UHGV virus genome: UHGV-0249966
Source of the DNA: a virus
Length of the DNA: 15,833 bases
Strand: one strand, 5' to 3'
Part shown: positions 3,550-9,813 of the stretch, piece by piece
How positions within the stretch are numbered: position 1 is the first letter of the stretch
Layout of the letters: every line of letters begins with the position of its first letter
The notes under the pieces: generated by a model
What the model saw: only the letters and a program-made list of their open reading frames with translations
What the model was told of the DNA's origin: nothing
The model's database searches: none
Program-made: the position numbers and the translations under genes

Positions 3550-4740
3550 TTAATTGCTGTTAACCGAAGTGACCAGATTTGCCAGGTATTTATCGGTAAT
3601 ACGCTGGCGCAGGGTCAGGTTTTCGAGAGGAGGCACCGGGGTATAGTCGTAGTCGATATACAGTTTTCCGGCCTTGAGGGTTTCCGCATCGTTGGATTCT
3701 TCGCTGAACCAGCAGGTCGCATCCACGATATAGCCGTTTGTTTTCAGCTCACGGAATTTGGCATTGATGCCGTCAACGATGTCGCGAATCAGCGTTGCGG
3801 TGATGGGCTTGTCCACCGCCCACATGTGCGCCTCAGCCATCGTGTCGGCCAGCACCTGCGCGGTGCGGGTGTAGTTTTCAAAGAGGAACAGCGGGTCATC
3901 AGAGCAGGTACGGTTACCCCAGAAGCGGAAACCGTCACGGCGAATCAGCGTTGTGACGCCTGACTCGTTAAGCAGGTCAGCATCGGTGCCGGACTCCTGC
4001 AAATCCCAGAATACAGAGGCGCTGATGCCGGTAACACCGTTCACCCCAACGTTGGACAGCGTTTTATGCCAGCCCTGCTCCTGGTCGATTTTAGCGCGCA
4101 GACCCAGCGCACGGGCGGTGGCATACGCGGTGGCGGTGGTACTGGTGACCGTATCCCATGCGAGGAAATCCGGCCAGATGACCATCAGCTCACGCTGGCT
4201 GAAATTCTGACGGTAGGCTTTCACCTCGGAAATGGTTTTACAGCCCCATGCGCTGATATACCCGAAAGCGCGCAGCTTCTGACAGACGGATGCCAGTGCA
4301 ACAGCCACCTCTTTGGTATCCAGTCCCGGCACACCGAGAATACGCGGTTTAACACCGGTTACCGACTCCGCCGCCAGCAGGGCTTTTAGTCCGGTGTACT
4401 GACCGTTTTCGTCGGTGGTGCCGATGATATTGGAAACGGTCTGCGCGAGTTTCGTTTCCTCGTCGTCGCCGGTGCCGTCTTCCACACGCACGACAACGGT
4501 GACCGGTTTTGACTGGTCAGCGATGGCCTGCAACGATGCCGCCAGCGTGCCTTTTTTACCGGCCTTTGCAATTGCGCTCTGCACATTGGTAATCAGCACC
4601 GGTTTATTGAGGGGGAAGGTTTCCGCATCCGCATCGCTGGCCGTGCAGACCATGCCGACAATGGCCGTGGATACGGTGGAAATGACACGGGTGCCGTCGT
4701 TAATCTCCAGCACCTGCACGCCGTGATGATAGTCTCTCAT
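3550..4740 (-). CDS. FI: Tail sheath protein gpFI
   Basis: 396-aa ORF (MRDYHHGVQVLEINDGTRVISTVSTAIVGMVCTASDADAETFPLNKPVLITNVQSAI...), same length as P2 gpFI and recognisably the contractile sheath N-terminus. Confidence 0.95.
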   Translation of the reverse strand: MRDYHHGVQVLEINDGTRVISTVSTAIVGMVCTASDADAETFPLNKPVLITNVQSAIAKAGKKGTLAASLQAIADQSKPVTVVVRVEDGTGDDEETKLAQTVSNIIGTTDENGQYTGLKALLAAESVTGVKPRILGVPGLDTKEVAVALASVCQKLRAFGYISAWGCKTISEVKAYRQNFSQRELMVIWPDFLAWDTVTSTTATAYATARALGLRAKIDQEQGWHKTLSNVGVNGVTGISASVFWDLQESGTDADLLNESGVTTLIRRDGFRFWGNRTCSDDPLFLFENYTRTAQVLADTMAEAHMWAVDKPITATLIRDIVDGINAKFRELKTNGYIVDATCWFSEESNDAETLKAGKLYIDYDYTPVPPLENLTLRQRITDKYLANLVTSVNSN

Positions 4741-4835
4741 CCGTTTAACTCCGTGGTTAATGGGTGCAACTATTTTCTGTTGTGCAGAGCATGAGACGCT
4801 ATTTGACCTGGCTGGTCAGGGGATGAAACAACAGA

Positions 4836-4859
4836 CAAAGAAAAGGCGGGTAATCCGCC
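4836..4859 (-). terminator. Candidate intrinsic terminator after the 278-aa accessory gene
   Basis: On the minus strand: GGCGG-ATTAC-CCGCC (5-bp all-GC stem, 4845-4859) followed immediately by TTTTCTTTG (4844-4836). It lies between the stop of ORF 4984-5820 and the FI start. Confidence 0.45.
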
Positions 4860-4983
4860 AGCCTGCCATGATTTGCACTCACTCATTTTCCAACTGACAA
4901 TTTACATAGCCCAAACGCTATCAAATCTGACAGTCTGCTTTGAGCGAAATGCGGACATGCGGGAGCATGGTTTATGTATGAAA

Positions 4984-5820
4984 CTAATGATGATAAATAC
5001 CATCGTCTAAAGGGGGACCTTCAGCCGTAACCCCCGTGATACTACTTGGCGGTTCAAAGATGGCCCGACCAAATATTGCATCAAACTCTGCTTTTGTGAC
5101 TGATAAGTATTGCAAGATGAGCTCTAGCAGCTCTCTGTACGTATCACAATGCCATTCAATGTGAGGACATATTCGGGAGAGAACTCTGTTCTTAAAATCA
5201 TCCAGATTATTTGGGACTTCCAGCAAGTTACCAGTGTTTAATGCTTTCGACATAAACTTGTAATTGAGCATAGAGAGAACCACTACTGATACACCTTTCT
5301 CTTGCCTTAACTGATCGAACTTCTCTTGTGCTTGAAGGCTTAGCTTGGCGTATTCGCGATCTCGTTTAGAGTTGATTGGTTCGACGTACTGAAGCGGTTC
5401 GTCTGCAGCATCACCGATACGTGGACAAAAGTATCTATTCCACCAAGCCTCAAAATACCTTTTTTGGAACTCAAGGTATGTCATCCCAATAATATTGGTG
5501 TTTTGAGTGTACTGTTTAGCACCCTGCTGAAGCCCGTGCTTTGAAATAATAAATCCAATATTAGCCCCGGTTTCATGCATTACCGTGGTGAACGAATGGA
5601 CCACCGTCTGTGGTATAGAACTACCCCAGTTTTTGCATTCCACAATGTATCTGATTTTGTCCACGCTCCTAACATCTGTAGCAAGAACATCCACATTCAC
5701 CGAGCCACGCGGGGTTTCTAAATCGACCTCGACTTCTGCAAACAAGCCAACATTACGGAATATACGTTGGACCCCTGTCTGGAGGTCTTGCCAGTTTTCT
5801 GGTAGTGGGTCATCGATCAC
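4984..5820 (-). CDS. Accessory protein with N-terminal PD-(D/E)xK (Mrr/restriction-endonuclease-like) nuclease core and an unassigned C-terminal region; candidate defence nuclease
   Basis: 278-aa ORF. Motif ...VNVDVLATDV...IRYIVECKNW... (D44, E61-x-K63) fits the D...(D/E)xK pattern of the restriction endonuclease fold. Start is GTG at 5820 (in-frame TAG at 5839-5841 prevents extension), with AGGA 9 nt upstream. GC looks intermediate, lower than the phage genes. Not part of the canonical P2 late operon. Confidence 0.6.
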   Translation of the reverse strand: MIDDPLPENWQDLQTGVQRIFRNVGLFAEVEVDLETPRGSVNVDVLATDVRSVDKIRYIVECKNWGSSIPQTVVHSFTTVMHETGANIGFIISKHGLQQGAKQYTQNTNIIGMTYLEFQKRYFEAWWNRYFCPRIGDAADEPLQYVEPINSKRDREYAKLSLQAQEKFDQLRQEKGVSVVVLSMLNYKFMSKALNTGNLLEVPNNLDDFKNRVLSRICPHIEWHCDTYRELLELILQYLSVTKAEFDAIFGRAIFEPPSSITGVTAEGPPLDDGIYHH

Positions 5821-5940
5821 TTCTGCTTTTCCTATGCACTATCCGCATGCTTTTAAGACTACTTGAAGACACAAACGTCGTCATCCACTAAAAGGTTCAA
5901 ATTTGAGATAAAAGTTCGTTTCTGGTACGAAGCGGATCGT

Positions 5941-6104
5941 TTGAAGAACCGTGTGATCTGCTAAGAGCGAGGAGTGGACGTTCTCAAGGGATTGCTTACA
6001 TCGAGGATGTATGAATCAACGGGGTGCAGGTCACAATATATGCTATCACTTGGTTGTTGAAACGAATGCCAAAGCCTGTGACGAGCGAGGAGTAGACTTT
6101 GGCA
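5941..6104. repeat. Two copies of a 15-nt motif GAGCGAGGAGT(G/A)GAC, each within an imperfect hairpin, in the inter-ORF spacer
   Basis: Copy 1 at 5965-5979 (gagcgaggagtggac) lies in the loop of hairpin 5941-5987 (5-bp stem, one bulge, 3 more bp). Copy 2 at 6083-6097 (gagcgaggagtagac) lies in hairpin 6067-6104 (perfect 8-bp stem tgccaaag/ctttggca, last motif base in the stem). Both are preceded by TGTGA; direct orientation, 118 bp apart. Confidence 0.6.
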
Positions 6105-6114
6105 CAAAAAAAAT

Positions 6115-7068
6115 TTAAGTGTCCGATGACTTTGTTTCAGCCGCTTTATCCTCAACCAATACCCAATCTCCGGAGCTAACCTTTGTCATAAGACAAAATG
6201 GAAAGTTGTTAAAAAAATGTTCAATATCACTTGAGGGTATTTTCTCAATTTTATTTAAACAACCATCAGCTATTTGTAGGGAAATCATTTCTCTTGTAAT
6301 TTTCATAAATTGATCAACATCAGATAACAACCATGTTTCATGATGAGCACCAAACAATTTGTGCGGTATATCATCAAGAATAAGATTGTCTAAATCATGT
6401 GATTTATCTTTGTTTAGCTCAAGAAGTACAAAATCAAAAAAATCAAAAAGATATGAATAGAGAAGATGAGTATAAAAGGTAAAATAGTAATCAGCAAAAT
6501 TAATATTGTTATTGAATCTATTTGAATACATCATATGAGGTTGAATCAGATCGTTTAGATCAGAGTCATATGCTTGGAAACAAATCTTTGTTTTAATATT
6601 ATCATCGTTGACATAATAAGGATTTACTGTTATCCCTCCATGAACTATCTTATTTCTTATTTTATTAAAGTCCTTATACCATTTTAAATTCAAATCTGGA
6701 AATTCCTGTGCATATTGCTGGAAATGATTTTCAAGGTAATCATATTTGTTGCCATTTTTTTTAGTTGGAAAAATTAATTTATCAGCTATCTGATATGCAA
6801 TATCCCATATCGTGCTGATTTTATAATAGCAATACTCAATAGCACTAATGCTGACAATTGATGTTGCATCATGTTTTCTGATGAACTCAGCATCTTTTTG
6901 AATTTTATTAATGTAAGTAATCATATAAAACAGTTTCTTGAAATGAGTTTTTAAATTTTTTAAAAGAAACTGAAGTTTTATGTCTTCCAGTGTATCTTCT
7001 TCATACTTATTTAAGTACATAATAATTTTATAAAGTGGACTGCCAACTCTTTTTGCATGTACATCCAT
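6115..7068 (-). CDS. AT-rich accessory protein with R-x4-H (HEPN-like) motif; candidate abortive-infection / RNase-type defence protein occupying the P2 Z/fun position
   Basis: 317-aa ORF with strongly AT-rich codon usage, unlike the flanking phage genes. ATG at 7068 preceded by GGAG (GGAGTAAATA-ATG). Motif KIRNKIVHGG = R138-N-K-I-V-H143, encoded at 6640-6657, matches the HEPN R-x4-6-H signature (R-N-x3-H as in many Abi-type HEPN proteins). Assignment rests on the motif alone. Confidence 0.55.
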   Translation of the reverse strand: MDVHAKRVGSPLYKIIMYLNKYEEDTLEDIKLQFLLKNLKTHFKKLFYMITYINKIQKDAEFIRKHDATSIVSISAIEYCYYKISTIWDIAYQIADKLIFPTKKNGNKYDYLENHFQQYAQEFPDLNLKWYKDFNKIRNKIVHGGITVNPYYVNDDNIKTKICFQAYDSDLNDLIQPHMMYSNRFNNNINFADYYFTFYTHLLYSYLFDFFDFVLLELNKDKSHDLDNLILDDIPHKLFGAHHETWLLSDVDQFMKITREMISLQIADGCLNKIEKIPSSDIEHFFNNFPFCLMTKVSSGDWVLVEDKAAETKSSDT

Positions 7069-7108
7069 TATTTACTCCAATAAATTAATGCGAACATTTT
7101 AATTGAAA

Positions 7109-7137
7109 ATTTAATGCCAAAAACTTTAGTTAGTCAA
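7109..7137 (-). promoter_or_regulatory. Candidate sigma70-type promoter for the accessory cassette
   Basis: Minus strand TTGACT (7137-7132), 17-nt spacer, TTAAAT (7114-7109), about 40 nt upstream of the ATG at 7068, in an AT-rich 168-bp intergenic region after G. Confidence 0.35.
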
Positions 7138-7236
7138 TAATTTATTCAAACGTCCGCTACTGGCACAGAACGGACTGTCAGATTAGGCTTTACTCTGTGC
7201 CATAGATATGTAAGCTCACACCAGAGCTCATACAAC

Positions 7237-7764
7237 TTATTGCGGCATTTCCGGCCATTCAGGATTTGCAGGATCCACACGACTGACCAGAACACTATAG
7301 CGTTCCCATGCCTCCAGTCGACTACGCTCCTCATCTGTTGCCATATTCAGCCTGACCGCGCGCTCCAGCGGCAAAATCACGGATTCAGCTTCGGAAAGCA
7401 AAGCTGCCTTATGTAATTCCGCCAGTTGCTGCTGTTCGTCTGCCGTATAAATCCGCTTAATCACGGCACCATCCTTAAACATCCATTTACCAGAGTCATC
7501 AGCACGCCGGTTGGCAGTAATATCAGGAACCTCAACGACGCTAAAACCTTCAGGATTAAGCGTTGAAGCATCTCTGGTGATGGCGACAATAATATTATTT
7601 TCATCGTAAACAATCTTTATTGTGTCTTCCTGAAAATTACTTACTTCTTCATACCAGTTTTTTCCGTCTTCGGACCATAACCAGATAACATCAAAATTCT
7701 TTGTTAGCTGATATTGCTCTTTTGTTTTTGGATTACCTGACTTAATGTTCTTTAAATGCTGCAT
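7237..7764 (-). CDS. G: Tail fiber assembly chaperone gpG
   Basis: 175-aa ORF directly after the tail fiber gene, same length and position as P2 gpG. Confidence 0.88.
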
Positions 7765-7767
7765 AAT

Positions 7768-9813
7768 TTACACCTGCGCAACGTTATACCATGTGCCATT
7801 GATGTATTTTTGTATTGGTCTGAATACTGCCGGATCATCACCATCGACTTCACCGACAATACCAAGCCCGGTAATTACGTGCCCTGCTTTCTCATACATC
7901 ACGCCTTTCTGCATGGTCTGCACAACACGTGTACCAAGTCTGATATCTCTCACATAGCGGGAATCAAAGTTACCGTAATCCGAGGGATTAACACGCCCCG
8001 TAATATTTATGGTCTTATTACTTTGAATGCTTCCGGAAACAAAGCGCATAACATGGACGTTATTAGCATAAACATCCAGATTACCATCGCCATTTTGTTT
8101 AAATCCGGTGTCGTTATCACCAAGAACAATAGAGTTCCCACCCAACGCGTTATTCGTGCCAAGTGCCAGCCCGCCATCAATCCTGGCACCATTACCAACA
8201 GACACAACTCCTGTTCTTAAGTTGATGCCGAATGGCCTTAATGGCCCAATATCTCCATTTTCACCCTCATTTTCTCGTGTAGGAATGATATACAGGTTTT
8301 CTTCAGAACGGCGAAAAATAGCCCCAAAAGATGAATTAAATATCCTCAGTGCATTGACTGTAGATATTTTTACTTCACTGCTGAAAAGGGCTTTAACAAG
8401 AACATACAGAGCATCCCATTTAAGATTCATCAGGTCTTTTGTTGTGGTGCTCTGGCGACTTCTCCATTTGAAATATTCATTGCCGTTGTCACCTGTTTCA
8501 AACCACATATATGAATCAGTATCGCTGTCGGCATCATTTTTAAATCCAATCTTTGCCCAGTCAGTATTTCGAATCCAGGCAAGGATTGAGTCGTTTTCAA
8601 AAGTAAGCCCACCGGACAAGGTATCGCCATTCTTTTGCACCGCGTTCCTGGCCCTGTTTACCGTTTCCTGCAAACCGAGGTATTCGATAACGGCAGTAAC
8701 GGTCGCTTTAGCCAGAATATCCCGTCCGACTTTTGTCAGGGTTGCCAGGCTGGCAACATCATTCCCCGTAAAATACGGAAACCTGTCTGCCGCAGTAGCA
8801 AGCCCCGCCAGCGCCGTCAAAGTGGCATCTTTCGGTTGCTTACCCGCAAGCGCATTAGTCATGGTGGTAGCAAAATTCGGGTCATTGCCCAGCGCCGCCG
8901 CCAGCTCGTTCAGCGTATTCAGTGCGTCAGGCGACGAGTCTACAAGGGCGGCAATCGCGGCCATAACGAAAGCCGTGTTTGCGATCTGAGTATTATTCGT
9001 TCCCTGTCGCGCAGTTGGCGTCGTTGGCGTTCCGGTCAGTGCAGGGCTGTTTAATGGCGCTTTCTTGTTCGTTTCATCCATTACCGTCTTAACGGCTTTT
9101 GGTGTTGCGGCGAGCGTCTCAGACATGCTGTTGGTCGCACTACTTAGCTGGACAAGACCTTTTCGCGCTGTGGTAGCGTCCTGTGCGGTATATTTCCCGT
9201 TAGCAAGGTCATATGCGGCCTTAACCGCTTTCGGCGTTGCGGCCAGTGTTTCAGACGTGCTGTTGGTCGCATTGCTTAACTGAGTAAAACCTTTTGCGGT
9301 CAGCGAGGCGTCCGGGTGACGTCGTGACTGTTCATGCTCTGCAATTTTGTCATCAACGTAATCCTGCGTCGCCATCACCGTTGTGGTGTCAATGGTCAGC
9401 TCCACTGAGGCCACACTGCTGACGATGATGACCATGCGGCAGGTCTGCGAACGCCCTGAGCCTTCGGCAAGGGTAGGTTTATAACTTTCGGCCATGTTCG
9501 CCACGGCAATTAACGTTCCCGCATCATCGTACAGGCCAAGCTCTCGCATCCAGAAACCGCCCACCTCCGGCGGAATAACCAGCTCTGCGATAATATAATT
9601 ACTGTTTCGTTTGTCCTGGCTGATTTTGTTCAGCGCATGTCGCCAGACTTCGTGGATAAGCCCGGTCTGTCCGGCATCCGGGACAGGCAATTTACCACCG
9701 CCATCCCCGACGGCCATCGTGGTAATGTTGACCTTCCGCCCTCCCGGCGCGGTTGCCGCTGCCAGCTTTGCTGCACCGGCAGTGGTGATAACGGTTTTGA
9801 ATTTTGTGCTCAT
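7768..9813 (-). CDS. H: Tail fiber protein gpH
   Basis: 681-aa ORF after baseplate gene I; conserved N-terminus MSTKFKTVITTAGAAKLAAAT...; internal duplicated motif ...SETLAATPKAVK... typical of phage tail fibers; Gly/Asn-rich C-terminal receptor-binding region. Slightly longer than the ~669 aa I recall for P2 gpH. Confidence 0.92.
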   Translation of the reverse strand: MSTKFKTVITTAGAAKLAAATAPGGRKVNITTMAVGDGGGKLPVPDAGQTGLIHEVWRHALNKISQDKRNSNYIIAELVIPPEVGGFWMRELGLYDDAGTLIAVANMAESYKPTLAEGSGRSQTCRMVIIVSSVASVELTIDTTTVMATQDYVDDKIAEHEQSRRHPDASLTAKGFTQLSNATNSTSETLAATPKAVKAAYDLANGKYTAQDATTARKGLVQLSSATNSMSETLAATPKAVKTVMDETNKKAPLNSPALTGTPTTPTARQGTNNTQIANTAFVMAAIAALVDSSPDALNTLNELAAALGNDPNFATTMTNALAGKQPKDATLTALAGLATAADRFPYFTGNDVASLATLTKVGRDILAKATVTAVIEYLGLQETVNRARNAVQKNGDTLSGGLTFENDSILAWIRNTDWAKIGFKNDADSDTDSYMWFETGDNGNEYFKWRSRQSTTTKDLMNLKWDALYVLVKALFSSEVKISTVNALRIFNSSFGAIFRRSEENLYIIPTRENEGENGDIGPLRPFGINLRTGVVSVGNGARIDGGLALGTNNALGGNSIVLGDNDTGFKQNGDGNLDVYANNVHVMRFVSGSIQSNKTINITGRVNPSDYGNFDSRYVRDIRLGTRVVQTMQKGVMYEKAGHVITGLGIVGEVDGDDPAVFRPIQKYINGTWYNVAQV
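9089..9317. repeat. Imperfect tandem direct repeat (period 132 bp, about 95 nt conserved per copy) inside H, encoding a duplicated 44-aa tail-fiber repeat
   Basis: Copy A from 9089 (cttaacggcttttggtgttgcggcgagcgtctcagacatgctgttggtcgc...) and copy B from 9221 (cttaaccgctttcggcgttgcggccagtgtttcagacgtgctgttggtcgc...). Protein level: QLSNATNSTSETLAATPKAVKAAYD / QLSSATNSMSETLAATPKAVKTVMD. Confidence 0.8.

Follow-up and report, generated by a model that had tools for sequence, protein, structure and literature searches.

Two putative single-gene immunity cassettes in tandem at the G-FI hotspot of a P2-like prophage, and the short sites at their boundaries

Herein, a 15,833-nucleotide (nt) stretch of the virus genome UHGV-0249966 was analysed computationally. 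This whole stretch is called the window, and coordinates refer to it unless another locus is named. Its 15.8 kb correspond to the late region of a P2-like prophage, whose genes are read from the minus strand. Two minus-strand open reading frames (ORFs), orfA and orfB, lie between the tail fibre assembly gene G and the tail sheath gene FI and point in the direction of the late operon. An earlier interpretation of the letters alone (the sequence-only reading) had placed both ORFs at these positions and in this direction, and had seen in them a paired module of a putative RNase and a putative DNase. We consider it probable that they are instead two independent single-gene cassettes, one for a HEPN RNase-like protein and one for a Mrr-type DNase, which stand in tandem at the G-FI (Z/fun) hotspot and would serve in defence. 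The genes at the locus are listed below in gene order.

7768-9813, minus strand: H, tail fibre gene, upstream of G
7237-7764, minus strand: P2 gene G, tail fibre assembly, upstream flank of the hotspot (Pfam Caudo_TAP, 3e-34; annotated in locus L001)
6115-7068, minus strand: orfA, 317 amino acids (aa), 28.6% guanine plus cytosine (GC); divergent HEPN-superfamily protein, putative RNase
4984-5820, minus strand: orfB, 278 aa, GTG start, 44.1% GC; putative nuclease
3550-4740, minus strand: P2 gene FI, tail sheath, downstream flank of the hotspot (Pfam Phage_sheath_1, 1e-33; annotated in locus L001)

Beyond FI, the gene order continues with the tube, E/E' and tape measure genes.

The insertion point is the classical Z/fun moron hotspot of P2, as had been proposed. 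The window was aligned to P2-EC67, P2-EC58 and a P2 genome, all of which carry other cargo. The backbone is conserved up to 4949-4958 on the FI side and resumes at 7149-7164 on the G side, which places the foreign insert at about 4957-7151 (about 2.2 kb); the span of 4741-7236 given before was too wide. An inverted repeat of the backbone (4924-4956 and 7152-7184) surrounds the cargo and matches the inverted repeats annotated in the P2 Z-region records AJ512683 and AJ512685. Matches to the flanks only were found in 1038 of 5426 complete E. coli genomes, with Shedu, SIR2, HNH, SMEK, FlxA-like and other cargo between the flanks. The cargo of the window was present in 8 of the 5426 genomes, at 99% identity or above. 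Sequenced P2-like phages matched at the ends of the interval only. The G-FI or tail-gene site has been named as a P2 defence hotspot in recent surveys, and 16% of the P2 defence systems sit in the P2 tail-gene hotspot (PMC13586616).

The GC fraction was computed as 0.286 for orfA, 0.441 for orfB and 0.432 for the 294-bp spacer between them, against 0.567 for FI and 0.555 for the window minus the interval. These values agree with the earlier claim that the cargo is foreign in composition. The accompanying claim that the flank on the G side exceeds 50% was wrong, with 0.438 for G and 0.498 for H. G and the 3' part of H (7237-9813) have a GC fraction of 0.36-0.47 in 300-nt windows, below the sheath gene and the other late genes, which fits the known mosaic and horizontally exchanged nature of the tail-fibre module.

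A terminator belonging to the cassette had also been proposed, at 4836-4859. The hairpin is present:

4845-4859, minus strand: intrinsic-terminator-like hairpin upstream of FI, GGCGG-ATTAC-CCGCC followed by a T run

It falls within the block 4711-4949 that is common to P2-EC67, P2-EC58 and P2. Because it lies inside conserved P2 backbone, this hairpin would serve any cargo inserted there and was not imported with the cassette. No RNA family was found by Rfam over 4600-7400 at a permissive E-value.

The co-occurrence of the two genes was determined by tblastn over 56 fetched loci. The two genes shared a locus only if each had 98% identity or more to its copy in the window, which was the case in the E. 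coli P2 prophages, three IMG/VR contigs and the genomic island L032. Homologues of orfA without orfB were found in 12 loci (46-88% identity), and homologues of orfB without orfA in 33 loci (42-97% identity). Solitary copies were also identified at high DNA identity. The orfA module (7164-6083, with 96 bp upstream and 32 bp downstream of the gene) is 92% identical to a ter-operon locus without orfB, where a PRTase/OLD-TOPRIM gene comes next; the homology of the module to L009 and L010 ends at 6083. Similarly, the orfB module (6033-4933, with 213 bp upstream of the gene) is 96% identical in lambdoid prophages of E. coli and Enterobacter without orfA, where it follows the replication gene P. Segment 5936-4930 was found in islands behind an unrelated 258-aa gene, and segment 5839-4929 between Q and the lysis genes of Proteus lambdoid prophages. 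No neighbour family was common across the groups of orfB contexts. The genes found upstream of orfB elsewhere (258-aa, 215-aa and 111-aa genes, and a 253-aa HEPN-annotated gene in L003) were considered as orfA-like and showed no similarity to orfA.

Each gene persists intact where the other is broken, which indicates that neither needs the other to be tolerated. The L002-type allele of E. coli has lost one A from an A8 run (window 6755-6762), which shifts the frame of orfA at about codon 103, before the catalytic motif, and orfB is intact there. This frameshift was verified in the sequence of L002, and orfA is annotated as two ORFs in five of the eight genomes. The orfB copy of L032 ends early, at a stop in codon 199, and orfA is intact there. 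The best reading of these data is that orfA and orfB are not a conserved pair, and that they are two independent single-gene candidate anti-phage morons. Two independently acquired morons had been the fallback of the sequence-only reading, and the independent distribution and mobility now favour it over the paired module.

The product of orfA has an N-terminal helical HEPN region with R138-N139-x3-H143, a beta-hairpin at 147-167 and a C-terminal helical region. Its 70 homologues, nearly all of 300-320 aa, were found in Aeromonas, Vibrio, Pantoea, Klebsiella, Dickeya, Pseudomonas, Aliarcobacter and other hosts. R138, N139 and H143 (IRNKIVHGG; R138-N-K-I-V-H143) are invariant in 24 of 24 aligned homologues of 30-88% identity, and the helix E78-Y-x3-K-I-S-T-x2-D-I is invariant in the same alignment. 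An AlphaFold2 model (pLDDT 87.5, pTM 0.88) places a helical N-terminal part that closes with the motif helix 129-142 before the hairpin, with more helices after it, and the predicted fold may resemble that of HEPN toxins.

The profile scores point to the same superfamily at a distance. orfA itself reached E 0.18 and 12.6 bits with HEPN_Apea (cutoff 24.4) over residues 106-150. Two remote members of the family scored just below the HEPN_Cthe2314 cutoff (26.7 against 27.1 bits), and another was weak on HEPN_Apea (E 0.009). The scores of these remote members cover the R-x4-H region. The likeness to HEPN_Cthe2314 and HEPN_Apea is at the family level over this region, with all scores below the curated cutoffs. 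No family in Pfam, NCBIfam, PHROGs or PADLOC 2.0 was matched above threshold, and PADLOC 2.0 returned no family for orfA at E-values up to 1, including PD-T7-3/DARNA and the other modelled HEPN systems. A PDB sequence-profile search with the orfA alignment gave nothing, and Foldseek of the model against viral structures gave no match at E <= 0.001. The family is small, since an exhaustive profile search recovered only 46 representatives (50% clustering) in 1.84 billion cluster representatives. No MNT or conserved partner gene was found beside orfA in the window or in the 12 homologue loci, and an identity as a HEPN-MNT (HepT/MntA) toxin-antitoxin system is not supported, as the adjacent nucleotidyltransferase was not found. 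By its sequence, orfA encodes a divergent member of the HEPN superfamily with a putative RNase activity. The HEPN-type motif had been noticed at the outset, and the invariance of R138 and H143 bears it out.

A promoter candidate precedes the gene:

7108-7137, minus strand: sigma-70-like promoter candidate of orfA, TTGACT-18-TAAATT, 9 of 12 matches

An own promoter had been proposed at 7109-7137. The pattern is indeed present (7137-7108) and belongs to the block that moves with orfA in L009, L010 and L032. The pattern alone is weak evidence because 13 promoter-like sites were seen in the region, against 7.9 +/- 2.8 expected.

Single-protein defences with an N-terminal HEPN domain and a C-terminal sensor have been experimentally established for HepS (PMC13043305) and DARNA (bioRxiv 10.64898/2026.02.22.705581). 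In these proteins, the HEPN dimer is inactive until a phage protein or phage SSB-bound single-stranded DNA is sensed; tRNA anticodon loops are then cut and the infection aborts. DARNA (PD-T7-3) is a single-protein HEPN anticodon nuclease of E. coli with 456 aa and the catalytic pair R117/H122 (bioRxiv 10.64898/2026.02.22.705581). It shares with orfA an N-terminal HEPN domain with R-x4-H (R138/H143 in orfA) and a non-catalytic C-terminal domain, and both are encoded alone, without an antitoxin gene. In both DARNA and orfA, the HEPN domain has its best structural neighbours among proteins of Csm6 type. The two proteins differ in that no sequence relation is detectable, orfA has 317 aa against 456 aa, and the C-terminal part of orfA is short and carries a beta-hairpin. 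HepS is a single-HEPN abortive-infection protein of the Gifsy-1 prophage that senses a siphovirus tail-tip protein and cuts tRNA anticodon loops (PMC13043305). orfA is unlike HepS in size, gave no sequence match to it in the PDB profile search and matched it weakly in structure; for orfA, a comparable trigger and target are a proposal.

The product of orfB matches Pfam Mrr_cat (PF04471) over residues 9-111 with 4e-11 and 43.4 bits (cutoff 21). It consists of an N-terminal Mrr_cat PD-(D/E)xK domain (about 9-114) and a strongly conserved helical C-terminal domain (115-278). In a 24-sequence alignment, D44, E61 and K63 are invariant, with D44 on strand 42-48 and E61-C-K63 at the end of strand 57-62. 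The mean column identity is 77%, and an invariant block surrounds R121-Y-F-x2-W-W-x-R-Y-F-C-P in the C-terminal half. The AlphaFold2 model (pLDDT 76) shows a restriction-endonuclease-like alpha/beta core followed by the helical domain. A protein of restriction-endonuclease fold had been suspected here, and the Mrr_cat match with its invariant residues substantiates it. More than 360 homologues were found, nearly all of 270-280 aa, and every listed one carries PF04471. Their hosts include Enterobacterales, Pseudomonas, Vibrio, Kangiella, Psychrobacter and others, and RefSeq labels such proteins just "restriction endonuclease".

Mrr_cat is a recurrent defence effector domain, and orfB shares this D...E-x-K domain with Mrr-type (type IV) enzymes, Epona, Avs/NLR and the Lamassu nuclease modules. 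It is unlike the Mrr-type enzymes in that its nuclease is N-terminal and is followed by a fused helical domain of 160 residues. orfB showed no Mrr_N winged-helix, transmembrane, NTPase or modification-reader domain. An assignment to type IV Mrr enzymes, which have an N-terminal Mrr_N or modified-DNA reader and a C-terminal nuclease, was rejected on this architecture. PADLOC matched the core only, as candidate PDC-S02 (3e-5; 65 residues, 43-107, against profile positions 236-301 of 346), and this identity was rejected as the match is not full-length. NCBIfam and PHROGs gave nothing usable for orfB, a PDB sequence-profile search with its alignment gave nothing, and no relatives of the 160-residue helical domain were detected. 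orfB is therefore a small Mrr-type nuclease with a novel accessory domain and without a recognisable DNA-modification reader. The statement that the two genes belong to no named system holds, with nothing from PADLOC 2.0 for orfA and the 65-residue core match to a candidate for orfB.

The neighbourhoods of both genes are defence-like. Homologues of orfA adjoin CRISPR I-F, SIR2+DUF87, PRTase/OLD-TOPRIM, YobI NTPase and AAA_21 genes. Homologues of orfB occupy lambdoid moron slots, either after the replication gene P or between Q and the lysis genes. No mention of the orfA or orfB protein accessions was found in the open-access literature searched. As a separate observation, three uncharacterised genes lie beside a solitary orfB in lambdoid prophages of E. 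coli and Enterobacter (L003 7224-11462 and L033 428-4666). They encode a 487-aa SEC-C-motif protein, a 253-aa HEPN-annotated protein (RHDCIH, unrelated to orfA) and a 414-aa protein, and this trio looks like another stack of candidate defence cassettes.

The homology breakpoints of the cargo fall inside short sites and are not scattered. Two site types of 24 nt were identified, which agree in their inverted arms and differ in their cores: T1 reads GTCCGCT-NN-TCGCTC-AN-AGCGGAC, and T2 reads GTCCGCT-NN-GTGCCA-NN-AGCGGA(C/A). The sites in the window are as follows.

7152-7175, minus strand: T2, boundary on the G side and upstream limit of the cargo, GTCCGTT-CTGTGCCAGT-AGCGGAC; an arm of inverted repeat I1
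6076-6099, minus strand: degenerate T1-like site at the 3' end of the orfA module, 15 nt past the orfA stop, GTCTACT-CCTCGCTCGT-CACAGGC (motif match)
5956-5979, minus strand: T1 in the spacer, GTCCACT-CCTCGCTCTT-AGCAGAT
5914-5937, minus strand: T2, upstream limit of the orfB module as in L015-L022, ATCCGCT-TCGTACCAGA-AACGAAC
4933-4956, minus strand: T1, boundary on the FI side and downstream limit of the cargo, GTCCGCA-TTTCGCTCAA-AGCAGAC

In gene direction the order is T2, promoter, orfA, degenerate T1, a cassette-tail relic with T1, 18 nt, T2, orfB and T1. At the T2 of the G side, the homology to P2 phages with other cargo stops, and the homology to L009 and to the non-P2 island L032 begins. 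On the FI side, five non-P2 contexts of orfB have their breakpoints at 4929-4943, and three P2 backbones that carry other cargo have theirs at 4949-4958. The arm next to the cargo differs from cargo to cargo and the distal arm from backbone to backbone, which is the pattern that crossovers inside the site would give.

In the spacer, T1 and T2 lie 42 nt apart from start to start, with 18 nt between them. The same T1-18 nt-T2 junction (42-43 nt start to start) also parts cassettes in L017, L032 and the lambdoid prophage L177, where such junctions bracket a hypothetical gene, AbiH, another hypothetical gene and SIR2. T1/T2 sites were also noted in L003, L023 and L029-L031. P2-like prophages, lambdoid prophages and islands of Enterobacterales all carry them. 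At about 6015-5957 on the minus strand, the spacer weakly repeats the sequence found downstream of the orfB stop (TTCATACAT ... T1). The relic itself, at about 6015-5980, precedes the spacer T1 and looks like the leftover 3' tail of an earlier orfB-type cassette. A duplicate of the P2 backbone was considered for the spacer and rejected, as just this weak orfB-type tail was found.

The exact T1 pattern (20 specified bases) was found in at least 120 IMG/VR stretches. Among the matches listed, there were 98 unique T1 contexts, whose flanks on both sides share essentially no information. T2-type sites (at least 6 of 7 arm pairs) numbered 70 among the matches listed in the T1-fetched loci, against 2-9 for three control hexamers, and T2 had played no part in fetching these loci. 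Of 5426 complete E. coli genomes, 2196 contain a match to a 79-nt composite of T1 and T2, in every case where nothing is annotated. In the window alone, 4 boundary-site palindromes were counted against 0.9 expected, a count reached by 3 of 200 shuffles and not significant. The case for the sites therefore rests on the breakpoints and on the recurrence elsewhere. The sequence of the arms is conserved, compensatory changes are few, and no T run follows. Together with the lack of an Rfam family, this favours DNA bound by a protein over an RNA hairpin or a terminator.

Further variants of the sites were observed. An insertion sequence (IS; HTH_38 plus rve transposase) lies inside the T1 central region downstream of orfB in L015, L016 and L019-L022 (5886-7046); the T1 halves flank this IS, and T1 is intact in L018. 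The L002-type allele (L002 3001-5511) has a 16-bp insertion in the FI-side T1 (window 4948), which consists of two extra copies of ATGCGGAC. The conserved 258-aa gene that precedes orfB in two to three island contexts (L015-L022 3984-4760) has no Pfam domain and is followed by its own T1/T2 (4841-4906); it looks like another single-gene cassette. In a Comamonas locus (L004), the half-sites AGCGGAC and GTCCGCT are spaced 22 nt apart in the intergenic DNA and look like remnants of a T1-T2 junction from outside the Enterobacterales.

T1 and T2 may be cassette-exchange sites. The "left" and "right" inverted repeats annotated in the P2 Z-region records of Nilsson and co-workers cover them. Site-specific recombination was reportedly proposed for the P2 Z region by Nilsson et al. 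in 2004. The sites were compared by eye with dif, hix/gix, attC and R64 sfx, and these identities were rejected. The attC core (RYYYAAC / GTTRRRY) was not seen in the T1/T2 consensus, as judged without a formal attC model. No integrase ORF is annotated in the record that matches the 15.8-kb window, and a recombinase for the sites was not identified. Nothing was found on the site sequences in the literature searched.

The other P2 Z/fun cargo is alike in insertion point, flanking inverted repeats and backbone terminator (PMC13586616; bioRxiv 10.1101/2024.10.15.618418). The window differs in that its cargo has no annotated function and is two stacked cassettes, against a single ORF in two deposited P2 Z-region records. 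A broader likeness exists to integron attC arrays, heterospecific lox/FRT exchange and the PeSL mobile regulatory cassettes of T4-type phages (PMC2839356). Short conserved elements stand between consecutive variable genes in all of them, and cargo is swapped with breakpoints inside the elements. Engineered heterospecific recombinase sites similarly come in two classes with common arms and a different core. T1/T2 are unlike integrons in having no integrase and no attC core GTTRRRY.

A wider proposal is possible, which we hold tentatively and think rather more doubtful than not. T1 and T2 would be the recombination sites of an undescribed system that shuffles single defence genes among P2-like phages, lambdoid prophages and islands of Enterobacterales, with orfA and orfB as its two new immunity proteins. 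T1 and T2, with their different 6-bp cores, would each recombine only with their own kind. A double crossover would then swap the cargo without deletion, as happens in engineered cassette exchange with heterospecific recombinase sites, and the window would be a two-cassette array caught mid-process. Alternatively, T1/T2 could merely offer short homology for general or phage-encoded recombination, a role that has been proposed for conserved regulatory cassettes in T4-type phages.

Under the explanation of two independent cassettes, cassette A would consist of the T2 site, its own promoter, orfA and the T1-like site. It would act like the single-protein HEPN abortive-infection nucleases HepS, DARNA/PD-T7-3 and ApeA. 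The HEPN dimer of orfA would form a composite R-x4-H RNase site that stays inactive until the non-HEPN part senses an infection cue. Activated orfA would cut tRNA or other RNA, and the infected cell would be arrested. Cassette B would consist of a T2 site, orfB and a T1 site. The helical domain of orfB may gate or target DNA cleavage, in a restriction-like or abortive attack on invading DNA. We infer expression in the lysogen and an anti-phage function, along with these substrates and triggers. Both genes fit the single-gene type of prophage immunity effector because they are short and AT-rich, orfA has a promoter-like site, and they sit in moron slots or in islands of defence genes. Their joint travel in this lineage would go back to a single joining event at a T1-T2 junction, and not to mutual need.

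Several observations weigh against this explanation. The pair moves as a single 2.2-kb block between the P2 hotspot and the island L032. In most E. coli copies orfA is frameshifted, and it may be dispensable or costly there. No convincing promoter of orfB was found in the spacer. No match to a named family gives either gene a defence identity.

The defensive role of both genes is deduced from their sequence and surroundings, which also speaks for the alternative that they do not protect the host. One or both could be selfish or addiction elements or have another function. Candidates are a toxin restrained by a small antitoxin or RNA that escaped recognition, a nuclease of homing type that spreads its own cassette, and a factor for counter-defence or superinfection in the lytic growth of P2. 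Both genes point in the late-operon direction, and read-through from the tail-fibre operon is possible. orfB always adjoins T1/T2, and a nuclease that aids the movement of the cassettes is conceivable. T1/T2 bracket many unrelated cargos without orfB, however, among them AbiH, SIR2 and HNH, which indicates that orfB is not the enzyme of the sites. Against a non-protective role also stand the neighbourhoods, which are defence islands and prophage moron slots, and the finding that neither gene has an MNT or a conserved partner in any context examined. We regard this alternative as unlikely.

Slightly less likely still is one cooperative two-gene system, for example with the HEPN protein as a sensor of infection or cutter of RNA that licenses the Mrr-type DNase, or with the roles exchanged. 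The genes lie side by side in the same orientation, and their spacer is fixed at 294 bp. The block 4937-7175 is 99.2% identical in the non-P2 contig L032, near integrase, DUF5677 and RelA_SpoT genes, and three IMG/VR contigs hold both genes. In Comamonas sp. (L004 4486-6927), an unrelated Mrr_cat gene of 474 aa is followed after 82 nt by a homologue of orfA (64% identity); from this pairing, some loose affinity in function between genes of the two types is conceivable and would count against full independence. The gene order in Comamonas is reversed relative to the window, however, and the nuclease is homologous to orfB in the catalytic core alone. This adjacency was treated as chance co-location within a defence island. 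The cooperative system is further opposed by the confinement of co-occurrence to near-identical copies, with 12 orfA-only and 33 orfB-only loci. Solitary copies of either gene exist at 92-96% DNA identity, and damage to one gene is seen in copies that keep the other whole. Between the genes lie a T1-like site, the relic of a cassette and a T1-18 nt-T2 junction, as between unrelated cassettes elsewhere.

Decaying passenger DNA without function in this prophage is the least probable alternative: the frameshift of orfA in L002-type copies and the truncation of orfB in L032 speak for it, but both ORFs of the window are full length with all invariant residues, the A8 frameshift may partly be an assembly error or reversible slippage, and purifying selection is indicated because orfB homologues keep 278 +/- a few residues and 77% mean column identity across Gammaproteobacteria while orfA homologues keep their length and motif.

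If the two genes function as proposed, two uncharacterised families would join the prophage-borne single-gene immunity candidates. orfA represents a rare HEPN family without a model in any library searched, and orfB represents a widespread and highly conserved Mrr_cat protein. The cargo is of a recognised type at an already known hotspot, and the boundary sites could be the part of wider import. In a 2026 survey of P2/P4 hotspots, the recombination that swaps defence genes with unrelated elements was described as still to be elucidated (PMC13586616). In other prophages and islands, T1/T2 stand between AbiH, SIR2 and HNH cassettes as well. With the breakpoints of five unrelated contexts and of the P2 backbones inside such short sites, the question of how these genes are exchanged becomes testable.

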